Origin: an uncultured Chthonomonadaceae bacterium
Lineage (GTDB): Bacteria > Armatimonadota > Chthonomonadetes > Chthonomonadales > Chthonomonadaceae
Reading direction: 5' to 3'
Length of the DNA stretch: 64,000 bases
NCBI GenBank assembly: GCA_963817895.1
Contig: CAWFQB010000002.1
Location: forward strand, 416,001 to 480,000
This document shows positions 6,527-61,935 of this stretch, one piece after another. The position numbers and the translations under genes were made by a program. Below the pieces are notes generated by a model. The model had not been told where the DNA came from and ran no database searches. It saw nothing but the letters and a program-made list of their open reading frames with translations. Numbering within the stretch: position 1 is the stretch's first letter; each line of letters opens with the position of its first letter.

Positions 6527-8174
6527 ATGCGTTTTGGAAAGTTGGGCGTTTGCGCGTTGCTGTCCCTGGCCGTTGTATCGGGCGTGATGGCGGACAAGGC
6601 GAAAACGGCGAAGAAGACGAATGACATAAAACAGGTCAGTGTGACGAACAGAGTGGTCGCGCAGGGGGATACGGTTCCTGCCGTCAGCCGGGAGTTTCGG
6701 GGCGTGTGGGTGGCGACGGTAGAAAACATTGACTGGCCCACCAAGCGCGGGTTGTCTACCGAAAAGCAGAAAGCCGAACTGGTCGCCATTATGGACAAGG
6801 CGGCGCAACTGCATCTGAACGCGATTGTGTTTCAGGTGCGGCCTACGTGCGACGCGCTGTACGATTCGCAACTGGAACCCTGGTCGGAATACATCACGGG
6901 AACGCAGGGCAAAGCGCCCGATCCCTATTATGACCCGCTCACGTTCGCCATTGACGAGGCGCACAAGCGCGGCATGGAACTTCACGCCTGGATCAACCCC
7001 TATCGCGCCAAACATCCCTCCTCCAAATCTACCGCGCCCAACCACATCAGCAAAACGCAGCCTGCTATTGTGCGCAAATACGGGACGCACCTGTGGCTCG
7101 ATCCGGGCGAACCGGACACGCAGGAGTGGTCGCGCAATGTGATTATGGACATCGTGAAACGGTACGACGTGGACGGTATCCACGTAGACGATTACTTTTA
7201 TCCGTACCGCGAAAACGACAAGAACAAGAAAGGAAATTCCGTTTCCCGACGACGCCAGTTATAAGAAGTATACAAACGGGGGCGGAACGCTCAGTCGAGA
7301 CGATTGGCGGCGCGAAAACGTCAACCAGTTTATCCAGAAGGTGTACAGCAGCGTGAAGGCGGAAAAGCCCTGGGTCAAGGTGGGCATCAGTCCGTTCGGC
7401 ATTTATCGTCCCGGCTATCCCGCGCAAATCAAGGGTTTCGACGCCTATCAGGAAATCTATTGCGACTCGCAAAAGTGGCTGCGCGAAGGCTGGTGCGATT
7501 ATCTCGCGCCGCAACTCTACTGGCCGATTGCGCAGACGCCGCAAAGTTACCCGGTTCTGCTGAAATGGTGGACGGAACAGAACGTCAAGGGGCGGCATAT
7601 CTGGGCGGGCAACTATACCAGCCGGGTGGCGGACGGCGGCGCGAAGTCGTACAGCGTGGAGGAAGTTGTCAATCAGGTGCAGGCTACCCGCAATCAGCCG
7701 GGCGCGACGGGCAACGTCCATTTCAGCATGGAAGTTTTGATGCACGACCGCAAGGGACTGGATGAGCGATTGCTGCAAACGGTGTACCAGTCGCCCGCGC
7801 TGATTCCCGCGTCGCCCTGGTTGAGCAGCAAACAGCCCGGTCAGCCCCTGACGCTGATACAGATTGACCCGAATACCAACGACGTGAAACTGGCGTGGAG
7901 CGCGCCGCAAGGGGATACTCCGGCGCAATGGGTGGTGCAGACGCGGCAGGCGGGAACGTGGAAAACGCAGATTTTACCCGGCAAGCAGGGCGGCGCAACC
8001 ATCAATTCCAGCGGCCACGCGCTGAACGTGGACATGGTAGCCCTGTCTCTCGTAGACCGCTACGGCAATCAGGGCAAGCCGTTCGTATTTGAACTCAAGC
8101 CCTCGGCGGCGAATGGAACTACGGTGAGCGTTGACCTCACCCCCGGCCCCTCTCCTGGCCGCGCAACGCGCTAG
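6527..8174 (+). CDS. GHL10 (YddW/DigH-like) glycoside hydrolase, frameshift ~7232
   Basis: Signal peptide; EFRGVWVATV.NIDWP, ELHAWINPYR, DGIHVDDYFYPY, GISPFGI, DYLAPQLYW. Confidence 0.88.
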
Positions 8175-8359
8175 GAGAGGGGAGGCTGTAAACAAATATC
8201 CTGTTGCAGTGTCTAAGCGTTTGACTCACTGATGTACACACGTTATACACCTTCGTTACATGAGTAACTCTCTTCCTTAACTGGCAAAATAAACAATGAA
8301 CTGCCTCCCCTCTCCTAGCGCGTTGCGCGGCCAGGAGAGGGGCCGGGGGTGAGGTCAAC
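8130..8359. repeat. 57-bp perfect inverted repeat, family I (CCCCTCTCC...GGAGAGGGG)
   Basis: 8130-8186 is the exact reverse complement of 8303-8359; AT-rich 116-bp spacer. Confidence 0.95.
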
Positions 8360-18938: not shown

Positions 18939-19145
18939 ATGAAAACCAAAATGAAAACGCGCAAAACAGCGGCCAAGCGGTTTACCAAAACCGGAACCGG
19001 CAAACTGATGCGCGGTAAAACCGGCCTCAACCACCTTATGCGCAAAAAAGATGGCGCGCGCCGCCGCACCCTGCTCGCCGATGGCGAACTGTTCAAAGGC
19101 GACAAAAAGCGCGTCCTGCGCATGTTAGGACAAGGACTCGATTAG
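18939..19145 (+). CDS. rpmI: 50S ribosomal protein L35
   Basis: KMKTRKTAAKRFTKTGTGK; synteny with infC and rplT. Confidence 0.95.
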   Translation: MKTKMKTRKTAAKRFTKTGTGKLMRGKTGLNHLMRKKDGARRRTLLADGELFKGDKKRVLRMLGQGLD

Positions 19146-19258
19146 GGAGTAGGGGGTAGGGAGTAGGGAGTAGGAAATGCGCTCATCTTGATTTGCACAT
19201 TCCAATTAAATCAGGCTTGAGTGTTTTCCTACTCCCTACTCCCTACCCCCTACTCCCT
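19144..19258. repeat. Paired inverted tandem repeats, family E (GGGAGTA)
   Basis: 34-bp perfect arms 19144-19177 / 19225-19258. Confidence 0.95.
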
Positions 19259-21039: not shown

Positions 21040-23145
21040 ATGCGTATCCCTTTGAAATGGTTACAGCAGTATGTGAATGTGCAGGCGAGCGGGCAGGAAG
21101 TCGGCGTGAAACTGACGATGGGCGGGCTGGAAGTGGAAGGCATCGAGGAGTCCGCGCTTGGCCCCGTATTGGATGTGTATGTCACGCCGAACCGGGGCGA
21201 TTGCCTGTCCCTGCTCGGCGTGGCGCGTGAAGTGTCCGCGCTGTACGGCCTGCCTTTGACGCTGCCCACGCCGCCTCATTCGGAAAAGGGTGGTGATGTG
21301 GCGGGGCAAACATCGGTTACAATTGAGGACGCGGATTTATGCCCCCGGTACGCGGCGCGGATTGTACGGGGCGTGAAGATTGGCGACTCCCCGGCATGGA
21401 TGCAGGCGCGATTGGAAGCGGCGGGACAGCGGCCTATCAACAACATTGTGGACGTGACCAATTATGTCATGCTGGAATTGGGCCAGCCGCTTCATGCTTT
21501 CGACCTGCACAAACTGGCGGGTAAGCGGATTGTGGTACGGCGGGCGCGGGATGGCGAAACCATTACCACGCTTGACGGCGAAGCGCGAACGCTTTCCACA
21601 AATACGCTTGTGATTGCCGATGCCGAAAAACCCGTTGCGGTTGCGGGTGTAATGGGGGGCGCAGACTCGGAAGTGGACGCGAACAGCGTGGATATTCTGA
21701 TTGAATCCGCGCATTTTGATCCGCTTGCCATTCGGCGCGCGTCCCGGCTGCTGAAACTGCGCACGGAAGCCTCGTACCGTTTCGAGCGCGTGGTGGATAT
21801 AGAGGGCGTTCAACGGGCGGTAGACCGCGCCTGCGAACTACTGGCCGACATGGGACAAACGGGAGTGGTTCCGGGCATCATAGATGTGTATCCGCAGCCA
21901 TATAAAGCGCGTCATCTGAATCTGCGCGTGTCGCGTGCGGCGGAACTGCTCGGCATGAACATCACGACGGATGTGGCAACGGATTGCCTGACGCGATTGG
22001 GCTTTACGGTCGGGCCGCGCGTGGATAGCGACACGCTGAACGTTCAGGTTCCCTCGTTCCGGCCCGATGTTACGCTGGAAGAGGATTTGATTGAGGAGGT
22101 CGGGCGTATCTACGGGTATGAGAACATTCCCGAAACCCTGCCGCGCGGCTTTACCACGCAGGGCGGCGACAGCCCGGACGGTTTATTCATAGACCGTATC
22201 AAGCACATTCTGGCGTCTGCGGGCTTGCAGGAGGTCGTGACGCACAGCCTGACCGCGCCCGCGTTCTTCAACTCGCCCGACGACGCTTCGCGCCGCGTGT
22301 CCGTGCGCAACGCGCTGTCTGCGGAAGTGGGCGGACTGCGCCGTTCGCTATTGCCCACCCTGCTGGACGTAGCAAAGCACAACGCCGCCTATCAGCAGGC
22401 GAACATGGCTCTGTTTGAAGTCGGGCGCGTGTGGCAGATGCAGGCGGTTCCGGCTGAGGATGGCGGTTCTGGCGAACCTGTGCCTACGGAGTACATCGCG
22501 GTCGGCGGCTTGCTTGTCGGCTCACTGGAACCGGGCGAATGGCACAACCGGGGCAAAGGCGCAAGCGCGGACTTTTATACCATCAGGGGCATTGTCGAGC
22601 GGCTGACGGCAAATCTTGGAATGGCAAACGTAACTTTTGCGCCATTGGGCGAGAAAGCCGCTGCCCTGCCCCTCCTGCACCCCGGACGCGGCGCCCTCGT
22701 GATGCGCAACGAGAGTCAGGTGATTGGAATGGTGGGAGAACTGCATCCACGCGCGGCGCAGCAGGCCGATTTGCGCGACAAAATCTATGTGTTCGAACTC
22801 AGCTACGATGCGCTGAAACAGGAGGGCGACACGCCCTCCGCCGCGTACCACGCCCTGCCGCGCTTCCCGGCTGTCACGCGCGATCTGGCCCCGCGTCTGG
22901 CTGCCGCAATCCCGTACAGACAGGTTCAGGCGGCAGTGGAAAGCGTCACCGCGCCCCTGCTCGAATCCATGCGCCTGACCGACGTATTCGAGGGTTCACC
23001 CGTGCCGGAAGACCAGAAAAGCCTGACGCTTTCGTTCACCTTCCGCGCGCCCGACCGAACGCTCAACGAACCCGAAGTCACCGCAGCGCTGCTGGAACTG
23101 CGTAACGCGCTGGAAACACACTGCGCGGCAACCTTTGTAGGATAA
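21040..23145 (+). CDS. pheT: Phenylalanine--tRNA ligase beta subunit (lacks B2 OB-fold)
   Basis: TPNRGDCLS, NNIVDVTNYV, EDLIEEVGRIYGY, C-terminal FDX-ACB domain. Confidence 0.96.
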   Translation: MRIPLKWLQQYVNVQASGQEVGVKLTMGGLEVEGIEESALGPVLDVYVTPNRGDCLSLLGVAREVSALYGLPLTLPTPPHSEKGGDVAGQTSVTIEDADLCPRYAARIVRGVKIGDSPAWMQARLEAAGQRPINNIVDVTNYVMLELGQPLHAFDLHKLAGKRIVVRRARDGETITTLDGEARTLSTNTLVIADAEKPVAVAGVMGGADSEVDANSVDILIESAHFDPLAIRRASRLLKLRTEASYRFERVVDIEGVQRAVDRACELLADMGQTGVVPGIIDVYPQPYKARHLNLRVSRAAELLGMNITTDVATDCLTRLGFTVGPRVDSDTLNVQVPSFRPDVTLEEDLIEEVGRIYGYENIPETLPRGFTTQGGDSPDGLFIDRIKHILASAGLQEVVTHSLTAPAFFNSPDDASRRVSVRNALSAEVGGLRRSLLPTLLDVAKHNAAYQQANMALFEVGRVWQMQAVPAEDGGSGEPVPTEYIAVGGLLVGSLEPGEWHNRGKGASADFYTIRGIVERLTANLGMANVTFAPLGEKAAALPLLHPGRGALVMRNESQVIGMVGELHPRAAQQADLRDKIYVFELSYDALKQEGDTPSAAYHALPRFPAVTRDLAPRLAAAIPYRQVQAAVESVTAPLLESMRLTDVFEGSPVPEDQKSLTLSFTFRAPDRTLNEPEVTAALLELRNALETHCAATFVG

Positions 23146-23156
23146 GAGGAGATTGT

Positions 23157-24266
23157 ATGAAAGTAGGTATTATAGGTTTGCCGCAGTCCGGCAAGACCAG
23201 TTTGTATAACGCCCTCACGCGCTCACAGGTGGAGTTGAACCGCTTTGGCGCAACCGAAGTCAATGTCGGCGTGATCGCCGTACCCGATCCGCGCTTTGAT
23301 TACGCGGTAGAGCAGTGTGAGCCGAAGAAAATCACGCCCGCCGTAATCGAGTTTACCGAAGGCGGGGCGCGAGTGGAGCGGGACGAGAACCGGGGGCAGG
23401 GCGCGCGGGATAAATTCGGCACGGACTTTTTCGCCAGTGTGCGCAACATGGACGCGCTTGTTCTTGTGGCGCGCGCGTTTACGGACAGCGCGGTTACGCT
23501 TCCGTCCGGCGGCGTCAACCCCCGGCGCGAGGCCGAGCAGATTTTAGAGGAACTGCTGCTGGCCGATTTGGGCGTAGTAGAGAACCGGCTGGAAAAATTG
23601 GAAAAGGCCAAGCTGCAAAAGCGGCAAACGCCCGGAGAGGCCGTCGAGCATCAGGTGATGATTCGGATCAAAAATCATCTGGAAAGCCTGGAACCTATCC
23701 GCACGTTGGAACTCACGGAAGATGAAAAACGCTCGTTGCGCGGCTACATGTTCGTGTCCGGCAAACCCCTGATACTGGTTGCCAATGTGGGCGAGGACGA
23801 GGTTGGCGAGGATACGCCCGTCAGTGTTTTGCCTGCATCCGCGTACGCGCAGGAGCAGGGCTTGCTTCTCGTCACGCTGTGCGCCAAAGTGGAGATGGAA
23901 GTGGCGCAAATGGAGCCTGCCGAAGAGCGCGAGTTTCTGGAAGCGATGGGCATTGCCGAAGCCGCCCGCGACCGCCTGATTCGCGTCGCGTATGCCGCGC
24001 TCGGCCTGATGAGCTTCTTCACGGTTGGCGAAGACGAAGTGCGGGCTTGGACAATCACCAAAGGCACGAACGCGGTGGGAGCGGCGGAAAAGATACATAG
24101 CGATCTGGCGCGCGGCTTCATTCGCGCCGAAGTGATGGCGTTTGAGGATTTCCGCAGCGCGGCAGGCTGTTGGGATGAAGCAAGGGCGGCAGGCAAAATG
24201 CGACTGGAGGGCAAAGAGTACCTCATAAAAGACGGCGATATAATGCACGTTCGGTTTAAGGTATAA
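23157..24266 (+). CDS. ychF: YchF-family ATPase
   Basis: GIIGLPQSGKTS, VPDPR, FFTVGEDEVRAW, IHSDLARGFIRAEV, EGKEYLIKDGD. Confidence 0.88.
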   Translation: MKVGIIGLPQSGKTSLYNALTRSQVELNRFGATEVNVGVIAVPDPRFDYAVEQCEPKKITPAVIEFTEGGARVERDENRGQGARDKFGTDFFASVRNMDALVLVARAFTDSAVTLPSGGVNPRREAEQILEELLLADLGVVENRLEKLEKAKLQKRQTPGEAVEHQVMIRIKNHLESLEPIRTLELTEDEKRSLRGYMFVSGKPLILVANVGEDEVGEDTPVSVLPASAYAQEQGLLLVTLCAKVEMEVAQMEPAEEREFLEAMGIAEAARDRLIRVAYAALGLMSFFTVGEDEVRAWTITKGTNAVGAAEKIHSDLARGFIRAEVMAFEDFRSAAGCWDEARAAGKMRLEGKEYLIKDGDIMHVRFKV

Positions 24267-24710
24267 GGGTTTTAAGGTTCTATGGTTTTAGGTTCCAGTG
24301 ACTGGATTAAACGGTGCAGGAGTTTGCTGATTGATTCCGTTTGTTGGAGGAGTGGCTGGATTTGTTCTGCTGTTGCCAGTTGTATATCAGGGCAGAGCAG
24401 CAGGAACGTTTCAAGTTCCCGCAAACTGCCCTGTGCTATACGAAGGAACTGCTGGTAATCTTTCCGTGTTCCGCGCCCGCTTCCCTCAGCAATATTGGCG
24501 GGTACGGCTGTTGCCGCCCGCCGCATCTGGCTTGTGAGGCCATAGAGTTCTTCTTTGGGAAACATCCGCGTCAGGAAATAACACGCTTTCGCCAGTTGCA
24601 TTGCCTGCTGCCAAACGAGCAAATCACGATAAGAACGTATCTCCTCCTATGCCATTACCAACCCCTTCCTATTCCCTTAAAACCCTAAAACCATAGAACT
24701 CTAAAACCCT
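24266..24710. mobile_element. Family F inverted repeat arms enclosing a four-helix-bundle gene
   Basis: AGGGTTTTAAGGTTCTATGGTTTTAGGTT 24266-24294 / AACCCTAAAACCATAGAACTCTAAAACCCT 24681-24710. Confidence 0.7.
24272..24655 (-). CDS. Four helix bundle protein (23S rRNA IVP family); TAG at codon 3 from the ATG, alternative TTG at 24622
   Basis: SYRDLLVWQ, FPKEELYGLTSQMRRAA..VPANIAEG.GR, FLRIAQGSLRELET. Confidence 0.9.
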
Positions 24711-26481
24711 ACCTCTGACCGGGAGGACGAGACGGATGGGGCGGGGCTTCGGGCTGGCCGGGAATGGTTCCGTGCAGGACGGGGCCGATGTGCTGCCATA
24801 AACCCGCGATGAAGTTGCGCATCTGCTCGCGCTGCGCTTCATCGGTTCCCGGCGCCTCCTGACACACGCGCACGAAGTACGAGGGCTGGCCGCCGTCCCC
24901 GAAGAAGGTCTGCCAGATCAGGGCGTTGCGTATCTGTGTCGTGGATTGCAGCACCTTGCCCTGCACCACATAGCAGAACATCATCTCCGTTTGTTCCGGG
25001 CGGCCCGTCTGCTTGAAGTGGGACTCCTGAACGGAAATTGTTTCCGCAGGCGTTTTCAGGGGAATGGGTCCCTGATCCAGAATCACGGCGTCGCTGCCCA
25101 ACGCGCAGTTGTGTGGGTCATGGAACACCTTGCGCCCGGTTCCCGCCGTCATAAACAGTTGGATATGGGAGCCGTCCGTCCCCACATAATCGCGGTTGAC
25201 GACGCGCAGGGGACTGAGCATTTCCAGCTGCGCTTCCGGCAGCGTATCCGTCTCTTCCAGCGGATTGTCTTTCGTGGTATACGTGACGCTGTTGTAGGCG
25301 AACGTTTTGGGAACCTGGAAAGTGGCAATGGGCGCTTTCTGCGTGGGTACGCTGCTGCGCAGGGCCGCATACGTGACCAGCGAAACCAGCAATATAACGT
25401 CCAGAGCGACCGCCTGCGGCAGCGTTTTGCGCAATTGCCCCGTCGTGGGACGCCACGCGAGGAGTTCCTGCCACCATTCCGGGGCGGGCGGAGTTTCCGG
25501 CCCCTGTGCGTCCTTCGCGGCTTTGGCGGCTTCTCGGTCCCTCTGTTCCATCTCGTCCGTCAGGGGTACGCCCAGAAACCGTTCGCACTTTAACACGCGG
25601 GCAAAGTTGAACAGAAACGTGAAGGCGAGAATCAACACGATAAAGCCGCTGTAATCGTGGAAAAACTGCGCGGAACTTGTGCTGAACAACTCGCCCACAA
25701 CGCCGATAAGCGCGATACGCAGGCCGTTGATAAGCAGACTGAGGGGCGCGGTCATCAGAAACAGCGTCCAGCGTTTCCACGCGGGCGCTTCCACGAGGTA
25801 CGCGAAGGCGGCGGAAAAGGTGAGCAGCGACAGCAGCGTTTTGAAGCCGCTGCACGGCAGCTCGACCGCCATGCGATAGTGTTCCATGTGAATCTGCGTA
25901 CCCTCCTGCATGGAGGTCAGGCCGATATAATTCATCATCCAGGTGGCAATCTGCGCCGATTTCATCTGAATGGGAAACGCGATGCCGTTAATCAACTGGT
26001 CGGGAACCAGCGGCATCATCATCGTGACGAACAGCAGGGGAAACAGCAGCAGCCGCGTTTTGGGCGTTCCCAGGAACAGCAGGCTGCCGCCCACCAGCAG
26101 AAAGATGAACGACATTGACTGCACGGTGGGAATATCCGAGTGCAGCGCAAGCAGCAGCAACAGCAGGCCCGGAACAATCAGGGCCAGGCCTGTCCAGGAG
26201 GGCTGCCGCCGCACATGCTGCAAACGATCCCGGCTGCGCCATAGCATAACGGCCACGAAAAAAGGCACAAAGGCCGCATGAGCGTAAAAACTGCCCGGCG
26301 CTTTCCACTCGTAGTACCAGATCAGAAAGGTGTTGGAATACAACACCAACGCCAGAACGAGCGCGGCCACGTAGGGCAGGCCATACATCAGGCGCTTCCG
26401 GTCGGAACCGGGAAGCGCCTGCGACTCATCCACATCGGATTCCAGCGTGTTTTTGGAAGCGCGGCTATCGAGAATATCCAT
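24709..26481 (-). CDS. Exosortase fused to EpsI-like domain
   Basis: About 8 TM segments with catalytic C (PCSG), R (NGLRI), H (FHD); C-terminal FHDPHNC. Confidence 0.9.
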   Translation of the reverse strand: MDILDSRASKNTLESDVDESQALPGSDRKRLMYGLPYVAALVLALVLYSNTFLIWYYEWKAPGSFYAHAAFVPFFVAVMLWRSRDRLQHVRRQPSWTGLALIVPGLLLLLLALHSDIPTVQSMSFIFLLVGGSLLFLGTPKTRLLLFPLLFVTMMMPLVPDQLINGIAFPIQMKSAQIATWMMNYIGLTSMQEGTQIHMEHYRMAVELPCSGFKTLLSLLTFSAAFAYLVEAPAWKRWTLFLMTAPLSLLINGLRIALIGVVGELFSTSSAQFFHDYSGFIVLILAFTFLFNFARVLKCERFLGVPLTDEMEQRDREAAKAAKDAQGPETPPAPEWWQELLAWRPTTGQLRKTLPQAVALDVILLVSLVTYAALRSSVPTQKAPIATFQVPKTFAYNSVTYTTKDNPLEETDTLPEAQLEMLSPLRVVNRDYVGTDGSHIQLFMTAGTGRKVFHDPHNCALGSDAVILDQGPIPLKTPAETISVQESHFKQTGRPEQTEMMFCYVVQGKVLQSTTQIRNALIWQTFFGDGGQPSYFVRVCQEAPGTDEAQREQMRNFIAGLWQHIGPVLHGTIPGQPEAPPHPSRPPGQR

Positions 26482-37281: not shown

Positions 37282-37402
37282 AGATACGAGATATGAGATA
37301 CGTGATACGAGTAGAAGAACTAACCAGATTGATCGCATCTGCCATACAGCGCGCCCATTCATCAGTGAGGCACTCGTATCTCGTATCTCATATCTCGTAT
37401 CT
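37282..37402. repeat. Paired inverted tandem repeats, family C
   Basis: 31-bp arms with one mismatch, 37282-37312 / 37372-37402. Confidence 0.92.
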
Positions 37403-39781: not shown

Positions 39782-39878
39782 AGGTTGTTAGGTTGTTAGG
39801 TTGTTCGTTATTAAGTTTCCTGATGCGCGTATGTTCTTGCTAACCTAACAACCTAACAACTAACAACTAACAACCTAC
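39782..39878. repeat. Paired inverted tandem repeats, family A
   Basis: AGGTTGTTAGGTTGTT / AACCTAACAACTAACAACTAACAACCTA. Confidence 0.9.
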
Positions 39879-45544: not shown

Positions 45545-45649
45545 CGAGATAGGAGATAGGAGATACGAGATACGAGGGCAATGCGTCCATTGAACCGGAC
45601 GTTCTTTAATGCCTCCTATCTCCTATCTCGTATCTTCTATCTCCTATCT
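45545..45649. repeat. Paired inverted tandem repeats, family C
   Basis: GAGATAGGAGATAGGAGATACGAG / CTCCTATCTCCTATCTCGTATC. Confidence 0.88.
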
Positions 45650-45664: not shown

Positions 45665-46207
45665 ATGTCTCGTTCCGTTCGTCGCCAGGTAGCGTTTGTC
45701 GCTGTGTTTCTCATCGTCGTGCTGGCCTTTGTGACCATGTTTCGCATGGCGGTGGTGCGCGGCAATTCGATGGAGCCTACGTATGTCAACGGCCAACTCG
45801 CGCTGGTGCGGCGGCGCAACGGGTTCAGCCAACCCCTGCGCCACAACGATGTGATTCTGGTGCGCCAGAAGCGGGATGTGATTATCAAGCGCGTGTACCG
45901 TCTGGAGGGCGAAGAGATGACGGACACCTACCCCTATCCGGTAAGTGGAATGCGCGAAGATCTGAAGGACTATTACGAGCAGCAGCCGGTGATGCGCGTA
46001 CTCGGCGGGCCACCCACCCATTACTTTGTTCCGAAAGGGTATCTGGTGGTGCTGGGCGACAATCAGCGCGTGTCGGAAGACAGCCGCGCCTTCGGCCCCG
46101 TTCCCCTGCGCGATGTTCTGGGCGTTGTCGTCAACAGCCCGCCCCCGCCCTACGCCGGGGAAGCGCTACAGTCCCCATTTGCGGGACAGAGCGGACGAAG
46201 GTTTTAG
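45665..46207 (+). CDS. lepB: Signal peptidase I
   Basis: GNSMEPT, IKRV, LGDN..SEDSRAFGPV. Confidence 0.9.
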   Translation: MSRSVRRQVAFVAVFLIVVLAFVTMFRMAVVRGNSMEPTYVNGQLALVRRRNGFSQPLRHNDVILVRQKRDVIIKRVYRLEGEEMTDTYPYPVSGMREDLKDYYEQQPVMRVLGGPPTHYFVPKGYLVVLGDNQRVSEDSRAFGPVPLRDVLGVVVNSPPPPYAGEALQSPFAGQSGRRF

Positions 46208-46308
46208 GGTTTCAGGGTTTTAGGGTTCTATGTGTCAGGCATAAGAGACATTCTCAATATTCGACACCCATTCCCTAAAACCATAGAACCCTAAAACCCT
46301 GAAACCCT
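46199..46308. repeat. Paired inverted repeats, family F (empty version)
   Basis: 27-bp perfect arms 46206-46232 / 46282-46308 with the GTTCTATG variant. Confidence 0.92.
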
Positions 46309-61290: not shown

Positions 61291-61622
61291 TGGCGGCAGA
61301 CTTCCTCAAAAGAAACCAGCGCGACACCGGCGTCCATGTCCGTCAGCGCCTGTTCTACAACCGTGATGCAGTCTTCGGCTTCCTCTCAGGGACTCTCGAA
61401 AAATTAAATTGTTCCACTTCGAGTCCGTGCAATGAATTGCGCGGCTGTGATAACAAAGTCCGCCTGCGCGGACTGGAACAGTTATTTTCGTGAAAGTCCC
61501 TTAGCGCCATTGTAACGACTTAGCAATCGCATCGCGATGAATTGACTGCGTTCCTCTTCCGGCAACGCAACAAACCGCGAGGCCACTTCATCCGGCAAAT
61601 CAATGGTGACTGTTAAACTCAT
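61290..61622 (-). pseudogene. Antitoxin-like small gene split by a MITE
   Basis: MSLTVTIDLPDE... upstream and ...EQALTDMDAGVALVSFEEV downstream of the 61389-61500 insert. Confidence 0.6.
61389..61500. mobile_element. 112-bp MITE-like element
   Basis: Terminal inverted repeats GGGACT(C/T)TC, flanks TCA/TTA, internal AGTCCGCCTGCGCGGACT palindrome. Confidence 0.65.
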
Positions 61623-61723
61623 GCTTCCTCTCCTGCAACAGACGAAAAGGGGAGCGCAGATAACTATGCGCCCCTTTATTATACACTGAAAGGCATTGCC
61701 TCAAACAGAAATAACAATGGGAA

Positions 61724-61805
61724 CGTGGGGTTCTGCTTGCTGAACCCTCTGTGTACAAGGGCGCAACCGTGTACAAAGCAAGGCGCAGCAAGCAGCGCCC
61801 CTACG
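61724..61805. repeat. REP doublet (GTAG/GTGG type)
   Basis: CGTGGGGTTCTGCTTGCTGAACCCT ... AGGCGCAGCAAGCAGCGCCCCTACG. Confidence 0.75.
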
Positions 61806-61831
61806 TAAACGTTCACTTTGACCGTGTATTA

Positions 61832-61935
61832 GGGACTCACATACGCCTCTATGCCTTCAGTCCGCGAAGGCGGACTTCGTTACCGGGCGTCCACCCGCAG
61901 GGAAGAACACAGCCGCGCAATAAATTGCGCGGCTG
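61832..61935. repeat. Relative of the 61389-61500 element
   Basis: GGGACT..CAGTCCGCGAAGGCGGACTTCGTTA..CACAGCCGCGCAATAAATTGCGCGG. Confidence 0.7.

Follow-up and report, generated by a model that had tools for sequence, protein, structure and literature searches.

A four-helix-bundle gene in inverted tandem-repeat arms at a bacterial gene junction, probably an intervening-sequence-type cassette

What is a gene of the PF05635 four-helix-bundle family doing between two inverted arrays of short repeats that overlap the stop codons of the genes on either side? We asked this of a 64-kb stretch of DNA (the window, C2:416001-480000 of genome G000), in which such a unit separates ychF from an exosortase gene and a second pair of arms built from the same repeats encloses no gene. 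PF05635 has remained without an assigned function since its discovery in the intervening sequences (IVSs) of ribosomal RNA (rRNA), and the paired heptamer repeats of bacteria are likewise unexplained. We observe that the unit has a defined anatomy, that it is polymorphic as an insertion, that its arms and gene are gained and lost jointly, and that its arms share their build with a genome-wide population of old hairpins abutting stop codons. The reading that we favour, with somewhat better than even confidence, is that of an IVS-type cassette, consisting of a PF05635 gene and tandem 8-nt inverted arms, which was acquired after the species split and is subject to the RNA and DNA processes proposed below, with the gene-less hairpins of its flavour being sister members of that population.

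The analysis used G000 (7.48 Mb in 14 contigs, 81% complete) and two genomes of the same genus, G001 (97% complete) and G002. The genus provides a clean natural experiment, since G000, G002 and G001 carry 2, 3 and 0 of these genes, no two of them at one junction, and the history of hundreds of hairpins can be traced individually.

Anatomy of the cassette

The arms, recognised by their inverted-repeat pairing, occupy 24266-24292 (left; the 3′ arm on the gene's sense strand) and 24684-24710 (right; the 5′, G-rich arm on that strand). Each is 27 nt long, 25 of the 27 positions are complementary (93%), and 391 nt lie between them, giving a total length of 445 bp. The arms are composed of tandem 8-nt units, GGGTTTTA, GGTTCTAT and variants; we refer to the 8-nt units found here and at 46206-46308 as the F flavour. 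The unit lies between and over the stop codons of two convergent flanking genes. On the left is ychF (23157-24266, + strand), whose TAA stop occupies 24264-24266, with the left arm beginning on the last base of that stop. On the right is the exosortase gene (24709-26481, − strand), whose stop (CTA on the + strand, 24709-24711) is overlapped by the right arm, which ends at 24710. Exactly one open reading frame (ORF) lies between the arms, at 24272-24622 on the − strand. It is downstream of the exosortase gene and runs in the same direction, and its last 7 codons and stop are supplied by the left arm. An earlier note on this DNA had claimed that the arms bracket exactly one four-helix-bundle gene and that they abut both flanking stop codons; the first claim holds as made, and for the second we find that the arms overlap both stops.

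The repeats that make up the arms are strongly over-represented. In the window GGTTCTATG occurs 3 times against 0.20 expected, a count reached in 0 of 100 shuffles, and GGGTTTTAGGG with at most one mismatch occurs 10 times against 0.91 expected. Both words are restricted to the cassette and the 46206-46308 locus, which together hold all 10 copies of the latter. The arm score of the cassette is 21, compared with a 99th percentile of 11 at 300 random places. When the cassette is folded as RNA, the arms form the closing stem in the minimum-free-energy structure as well as in the centroid; the energy is −182.9 kcal/mol (z −5.9), which none of 100 shuffles matched. An Rfam scan of 23000-26000 returned no family, one chance sub-threshold match apart. 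No target-site duplication is evident at 24266/24710; a possible short CCTC(C)AG repeat stands beside one G002 cassette, a single case.

The cassette gene

As it stands, the ORF starts on TTG at 24622 and encodes 116 amino acids. The protein matches PF05635 with E 1.9e-37 (128.2 bits, cut-off 33.8), TIGR02436 with 127.4 bits (cut-off 24) and NF008911 with 157.6 bits (cut-off 137), and its closest solved structure is that of Xanthomonas XCC0516 (PDB 2gsc, E 2.8e-22). The family assignment made in the earlier note is thereby confirmed and agrees with the literature on 23S rRNA IVSs (PMC4990558), and the structural kinship it proposed with Avd, the accessory protein of diversity-generating retroelements (DGRs), has support in a paper relating PF05635 to Avd (PMC10053308). 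The Avd model NF033474 gives the cassette protein 20 bits against a cut-off of 80, so the protein is a relative of Avd and not an Avd.

The 5′ end of the gene appears to be damaged. Upstream of the TTG the frame reads M-A-stop-E-E-I-R-S-Y-R-D-L-L-V-W-Q; that is, the segment at 24623-24655 (− strand), which looks like an ancestral N-terminal segment, opens with ATG at 24655-24653 and has an in-frame TAG at codon 3 (24649-24647), followed by the IRSYRD codons, and the TTG start lies downstream of this TAG. We compared the gene with its 80 best homologues in a distant set. The W of the VWQ motif stands at index 12-14 from the start in 48 of these 80 loci, which matches the ATG at 24655-24653 here, and the IRSYRD stretch is conserved among them. 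For both reasons we take this ATG to be the normal start and the TAG to be codon 3. The gene therefore does not have an intact frame from the usual start of its family, and it reads as freshly nonsense-mutated, as N-terminally shortened to the TTG at 24622, or as an assembly or population variant. The break, or the assembly variant, is probably recent, since the conserved IRSYRD codons downstream of the TAG are intact.

Insertion at the junction and joint gain and loss of arms and gene

YchF of G002 and of G001 is 90% and 82% identical to that of G000, respectively, and the junctions of both congeners lack the cassette. In G001 the ychF-exosortase junction is about 60 nt long and holds a plain GC-rich hairpin. 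In G002 it is about 900 nt long and holds a PemK/MazF-like toxin gene with a small ORF upstream. This toxin gene lies at L002 2771-3383 (E 4e-31), the small ORF has a weak HicB-like match below the cut-off, and TAATGCC heptamer repeats abut the exosortase stop at the same junction. The cassette thus appears to be an insert gained at the ychF/exosortase junction after the split from the congeners, and this junction is a hot spot for small inserts. The anatomy and the congener junctions without the unit bear out the proposal that an IVS-like unit has been inserted at an mRNA gene junction.

The census of PF05635 genes is 2 in G000, 3 in G002 and 0 in G001. The five genes lie at five different junctions and all five have periodic inverted arms, of flavours GGGTTTTA, GGTAGATG, CAGTAGT, GGAGAAAA and a GGGAACA/GGTTACAG mix. 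The second G000 gene (C1:1459284-1459607), whose arms are of the GGTAGATG flavour, is intact. The site of the first G002 cassette measures about 20 nt in G000 and has neither arms nor gene. The site of the second has in G000 a gene-less GATACGA hairpin with the same outer boundaries, and that of the third a gene-less hairpin of 9-nt units whose arms abut both stop codons, as those of the cassette do. Conversely, the site of the second G000 cassette has in G002 a gene-less hairpin of 9-10-nt units. At 3 of the 5 cassette sites, then, a gene-less hairpin of a different flavour stands in the sister species (binomial P 0.03 at a 15% base rate). The earlier note had proposed checking whether four-helix-bundle genes lie within paired arms, and both such genes of G000 do; the outcome that it had named as damaging, a gene in synteny without arms in relatives, did not appear, and at one G002 site arms and gene are absent together in G000.

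Arms also accompany the gene outside the genus. A PF05635 match over the cut-off is present in 14 of 31 related genomes, and arms were found at 9 of 12 such loci examined in other relatives. The 80 best homologues are at most 66% identical to the cassette protein and come from Alphaproteobacteria, Planctomycetota, Cyanobacteria, Armatimonadota, Chloroflexota, Acidobacteriota and others; 79 of their loci could be tested for arms, and 75 of these have an arm score of at least 13, where the null has a 95th percentile of 10 and a maximum of 18. Copies with GGCAGTA arms occur in many Mesorhizobium genomes. The arms accompany the gene even in five relatives without any 7/8-nt hairpin in the 100 kb sampled. 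Altogether, arms and gene come and go together.

Tandem-repeat hairpins across the genome

Across the whole of G000 a scan counted 1075 inverted repeats that do not overlap one another and whose arms reach 18 nt or more; 433 of them have periodic arms. The period is 7 in 266 hairpins, 8 in 128, 9 in 19 and 10 in 16, and the loop measures 20-100 nt in 334 of the 433. Flavours number dozens; the commonest are GATACGA (54), GGGAGTA (44) and GGTTGTTA (32), and none of these three has a gene-bearing copy in the assembly. The loops are largely unique: 273 of 329 resemble no other loop and 272 of 329 match nothing else in the genome. We considered whether loops had been copied from elsewhere in the genome and rejected this, the 57 of 329 with a non-self match being mostly nested repeats. 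A search for remnants of cargo genes in 368 loops of 60-700 nt found none at E up to 1. Being unique in their loops and free of cargo remnants, the hairpins are neither copies of a master element nor recognisable deletion derivatives.

Gene context was taken from in-house gene calls based on ORFs and codon usage. The junction set comprises 371 hairpins of period 7/8 with loops under 200 nt, 209 of which have both neighbours called within 300 nt; the 162 left out were too distant from a called gene (134), within a called gene (27) or at a contig edge (1). Tandem junctions account for 165 of the 209 hairpins, convergent junctions for 29 and divergent junctions for 15, where the genome-wide numbers of gaps of 60-700 nt are 2211, 527 and 579, respectively. 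The hairpins sit close to the upstream stop codon, with a median of 2 nt from stop to arm start (−4 to +6 nt in 136 of 223) and an arm overlapping the stop in 49 of 223. On the other side the median distance from the arm end to the next start codon is 19 nt.

Handedness is fixed among the periodic hairpins: in 414 of 429 the arm richer in G is the 5′ one, with only 5.8% C, and the remaining 15 are either 9/10-nt flavours or false long-range pairs. Among non-periodic inverted repeats this bias is absent, the split being 260 to 243. This G-first arrangement holds on either strand because an inverted repeat reads alike on both, and we observed it in 73 of 75 homologue cassettes and in 20 of 20 G002 hairpins. 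Handedness is therefore a property of the hairpin and not of gene orientation. Examples in the window are the hairpins at 19144-19258, 37282-37402 and 45547-45649. Two functional readings of the G-rich 5′ arm were considered. As a supplier of stop codons it cannot be general, since the commonest units GATACGA and GGAGAAAA are without a stop triplet by inspection. For a quadruplex role the flavours differ: the F flavour contains GGG, many flavours lack G runs, and the commonest, GATACGA, contains no GG.

Gene-less hairpins of the cassette's flavour

The gene-less F hairpin of the window lies at 46206-46308. Its arms (46206-46232 and 46282-46308) are 27 nt long and 100% complementary and enclose a unique loop of 49 nt, in line with the earlier claim that at 46199-46308 the same arms bracket only about 50 bp. 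Weaker pairing extends outwards to 46189/46317, and the pair folds as RNA with −57.1 kcal/mol (z −7.1). The corresponding junction has a GATGAAT-type hairpin in G002 and none in G001. The ORF upstream ends on a TAG (about 46203-46205) within an outer, imperfect arm unit, 1 nt before the perfect arm. The C-terminal tail of its protein (46150-46206) differs from those of G002 and G001 in length and sequence, from which it follows that the hairpin has reshaped the end of the protein.

Allowing at most one mismatch, an 18-nt F word has 21 matches in G000 and 40 in G002, and is absent from G001 and 28 other relatives. There are at least 10 clean gene-less F pairs in G000, in which the GGTTCTAT unit is one normal variant. 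G002 has its 40 matches, yet its three four-helix-bundle genes have arms of other flavours.

This distribution allows an alternative that we regard as unlikely: the gene alone might move and have entered the loop of an F hairpin already in place, in which case the arms would be a property of the host and the filled and empty pairs two states of one kind of locus. The restriction of the F flavour to G000 and G002 is as expected from this, the cassette flavours GGTAGATG, GGAGAAAA and CAGTAGT are also common gene-less flavours in these two genomes, and a hairpin is present in the sister species at 3 of 5 cassette sites. However, the sister's hairpin at those three sites differs in unit and even in period, a fourth site is without both arms and gene together, and arms stand beside the gene in genomes in which no gene-less hairpins were found.

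History and maintenance of the hairpins

To what extent the hairpins are old was read from a comparison of 35 G000 hairpins in four regions with the same junctions in G002. At 27 the comparison was possible (of the other 8, 1 lacked collinearity and 7 had a flank that could not be located). A periodic hairpin is present in G002 at 20 of these 27 junctions (binomial P 2e-9 at a 20% base rate) and absent at 7. The repeat units of the two species are identical at 1 junction, differ at 1 position at 2 junctions, at 2 positions at 6 and at 3-4 positions at 7, and are of different period at 4. Units at the same junction that differ at no more than 2 positions number 9 of 20, compared with 3.9 expected from shuffled pairs (permutation P 0.003). 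Co-occupancy and likeness of units together indicate that many hairpins predate the G000-G002 split. Both arms have changed together since then, as where one species has GATACGA and the other GATAAGA or GATATAA, and other hairpins have been replaced. Likeness of loops at co-occupied junctions was significant in 1 of 15 pairs (p<0.05), a test with little power at this divergence because neutral sites are near saturation at this distance. The loop at 39784-39860 has an 11-nt word in common with the G002 hairpin at the same junction (p 0.0005). The word resembles the G002 arm unit and may be the trace of an older arm, that is, of nested arm renewal.

The density of hairpins of period 7/8 differs sharply among genomes, with 11 per 64 kb in the window, 10 per 80 kb in G002, 1 per 80 kb in G001 and 0 per 100 kb in each of eight further relatives, five of which have a PF05635 gene. 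These eight relatives are free of hairpins with or without the gene, so the gene is not sufficient for hairpins.

These data bear on the view of the earlier note, that of a master element and its dependants, in which the protein, in the manner of REPIN/RAYT or Ssn/SRM systems, would bind its own arm repeat and spread or maintain gene-less hairpins as non-autonomous partners. We consider it distinctly improbable. It has a precedent in genes for small nucleases that cut a dispersed hairpin repeat, copies of which flank the gene (PMC11893778). The filled cassette has its F units, the GGTTCTAT variant among them, in common with at least 10 clean hairpins that lack a gene, and dense hairpins go with the gene within the genus, in G000 (2 genes) and G002 (3 genes) but not in G001 (0 genes in a 97% complete genome). 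However, the five relatives with PF05635 over the cut-off have no hairpin in 100 kb each, the abundant GATACGA, GGGAGTA and GGTTGTTA flavours are without a gene-bearing copy, and the many F matches of G002 coexist with genes in other arms. Additionally, the loops are unique, unlike those of REPINs, most hairpins are older than the G000-G002 split, and the protein fold is neither that of a nuclease nor that of a transposase. The claim that the empty pairs derive from the cassette, as decayed or non-autonomous forms, is not supported: their loops are unique and hold no cargo remnants, 20 of 27 junctions are co-occupied in G002, the 40 F matches of G002 come without an F-armed gene, and five gene-bearing relatives are free of hairpins in 100 kb. 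The gene-less F hairpins would appear to be sister members of the hairpin population and not deletion copies of the cassette.

We can all but discard the last alternative, that there is no unit and an ordinary small gene lies by chance between two terminator-like repeats, for although inverted repeats are common at convergent gene ends, the arm score of 21 far exceeds the random 99th percentile of 11, 75 of 79 homologues, from many phyla, are packaged in the same way, and 24150-24850 has no intrinsic-terminator pattern.

How the IVS-type arms of the cassette and those of the hairpins are kept paired can be approached through their mismatches. On the sense strand of 165 co-directional junctions there are 58 G-U, 63 A-C and 49 transversion-type mismatches; in 75 cassettes, on the sense strand of the gene, there are 28, 37 and 48, respectively. 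Selection on RNA pairing would put G-U ahead of A-C on the transcribed strand. Neither set has an excess of G-U, which speaks against RNA selection as the sole keeper of the arms. The arms look as if they were made or corrected as exact DNA complements and then left to random decay, with which a role at the RNA level is compatible. Slippage within arrays and template-switch correction between nearby inverted repeats could yield exact arm complements.

Proposed mechanism and its weak points

For the IVS-type cassette we propose a mechanism that combines an RNA and a DNA process. The cassette would be transcribed as a 3′ extension of the exosortase mRNA, with its arms paired in a 27-bp stem that could be cut by RNase III, as happens in the 23S rRNA IVS. 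The cassette RNA would thereby be released and the host message would end in a hairpin. This would account for the tolerance of such units in operon spacers as well as in rRNA helices. At the DNA level, a strand-symmetric process, namely slippage of the arrays and template-switch correction between the arms, would keep the arms complementary, and cassettes would settle preferentially at junctions that already have a hairpin.

A number of points weigh against this reading. RNase III cutting of the cassette is proposed by analogy only, and the absence of a G-U excess speaks against RNA-level selection keeping the arms paired. A scan of 24150-24850 found no sigma-70-like promoter and no intrinsic terminator, and the TAG at codon 3 means that this copy may be inactive. 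The preference for landing at hairpins comes from 5 sites only. The nearest homologues, at no more than 66% identity, all have arm flavours other than F, and the F flavour of this copy is found only in G000 and G002, which is odd if arms travel with the gene. Finally, G000 is only 81% complete, and the gene context of the hairpins depends on a crude in-house gene caller.

A bolder generalisation, which we offer as speculative and do not expect to hold as it stands, is that IVS-type cassettes form a general class of mobile genes homing to the tips of DNA or RNA hairpins. rRNA helices and operon-junction hairpins would then be two landing sites of one mechanism, and the Avd-like protein would be a nucleic-acid-binding partner that installs or renews G-first arms with a host polymerase or nuclease. 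If true, hairpin-tip homing would tie together the function of S23p/PF05635, the origin of rRNA IVSs and the excess of heptamer repeats in bacteria. Any model must accommodate arms and gene that travel together, arms that co-evolve with each other and appear to be maintained as DNA, and a fixed G-first handedness. The long life of the gene-less hairpins is a further constraint on mechanism.

Other gene families in inverted arms

The four-helix-bundle gene is not the only kind of gene enclosed in this way. The earlier note had suggested testing GxxExxY (PF13366) and DUF559 (PF04480) genes, together with the match between motif family and protein. In G000, all four GxxExxY genes and two of three DUF559 genes lie in inverted arms, with scores of 29-46; none of these genes is in the window. 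The third DUF559 match, a weak one (E 1.3e-10), is without arms. The arms of both four-helix-bundle genes have 8-nt units, those of three of the four GxxExxY genes have units of 9, 10 and 9 nt with the fourth pair looking non-periodic by eye, and those of the DUF559 genes are non-periodic, at 32 and 49 nt. In G000, then, arm style follows gene family, although the numbers are small.

The DUF559 genes at C1:437875-438543 and C5:310650-311246 share about 81% DNA identity over 601 nt, comprising gene, right arm and adjoining repeats, and further arm copies adjoin both. These two cassettes are likely a recent duplication of a whole cassette. Unit boundaries read from the two copies were muddled by nested repeats.

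Two other inverted repeats of the window stand apart. The hairpin at 8130-8359 has 57-nt non-periodic arms of the ACCTCACCCC...AGGAGAGGGG type, which recurs, for example, at C1:472097 and C6:338776 and forms a separate repeat family. At 61425-61932, 25-nt inverted arms lie 458 nt apart, and the interior contains no convincing ORF and no Rfam family.

Comparison with known systems

The earlier note had presented the locus as a candidate for an undescribed system. This is right for the link between gene and hairpins, in that a literature search with supplements outside its reach found no paper tying PF05635 genes outside rRNA to such hairpins; it is not right for the parts, since the gene family and the hairpins have each been published.

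Several systems resemble the cassette in one respect and differ in another. The TAACTGA repeats of Beggiatoaceae are direct repeats upstream of start codons, unlike the hairpins here (PMC4679880). Avd of DGRs has a homologous four-helix-bundle fold (PMC10053308), whereas the neighbours here are ychF and exosortase, with no reverse transcriptase. The Ssn nucleases with their NTS/SRM repeats also comprise a small gene with copies of a dispersed hairpin repeat on both sides, and the Ssn protein binds the repeat; its cargo, however, is a GIY-YIG nuclease of single-stranded DNA and not a four-helix bundle (PMC11893778). This parallel is apter for the GxxExxY and DUF559 cassettes of G000 than for the four-helix-bundle one. 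As in REPIN/RAYT systems, many gene-less, hairpin-forming inverted repeats coexist with a rare gene flanked by them, but a REPIN is conserved as a whole where here only the arms are (273 of 329 loops being unique), and the RAYT is a tyrosine (Y1) transposase, while the cargo here is a PF05635 four-helix bundle with no known catalysis (PMC3116915, PMC3337134).

The gene-less hairpins are of the population type described in Xanthomonas. There, arrays of the G-rich heptamer GGGAATC include 70-75 convergent plus/minus pairs. They are transcribed, are found near stop codons or across them, in most cases between genes of one orientation, and recur at corresponding junctions of two species while their sequence varies (Rehm et al. 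2015, PMC4692102). The same paper covers the G-rich heptamer GGGGAYT of Nostoc. The likeness extends to the tandem 7-nt units (7 or 8 nt here), the G-rich strand coming first on either strand, the position at stop codons, the mostly co-oriented neighbours with 7-8% divergent junctions there and 7% here, and the occupation of the same junctions in sister species by repeats of different sequence and length (PMC4692102). PMC4692102 treats its repeats as quadruplex-forming simple repeats, whereas the hairpins here come in dozens of flavours, many without G runs. The terms xcc0516 and S23 have 0 occurrences in the searched text of PMC4692102, which thus draws no link to the four-helix-bundle gene.

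The closest counterpart of the cassette is the ORF-bearing IVS of 23S rRNA, known from Coxiella burnetii with S23p, from Leptospira and from others, whose cargo likewise belongs to PF05635 (PMC4990558). The 16S and 23S insertions of CPR (candidate phyla radiation) bacteria are reported to contain PF05635 ORFs as well (bioRxiv 10.1101/2024.02.27.582315). The Coxiella IVS measures 428-444 nt and has a 28-bp terminal stem cut mid-stem by RNase III (PMC4990558), compared with 445 bp and a stem of 27 bp here. It has three tandem GACAGAT heptamers, variable in number, before the start of S23p, and a decaying ORF (PMC4990558; Warrier et al. 2016), so that tandem short repeats at the 5′ end and an ORF that is sometimes decaying are features of both. 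In contrast to the 23S rRNA IVS, the cassette lies between two protein genes, ychF and exosortase, with no rRNA helix, its arms belong to a genome-wide hairpin population, and its excision is proposed by analogy only. Apart from the host site, the cassette would be the same object as the Coxiella IVS.

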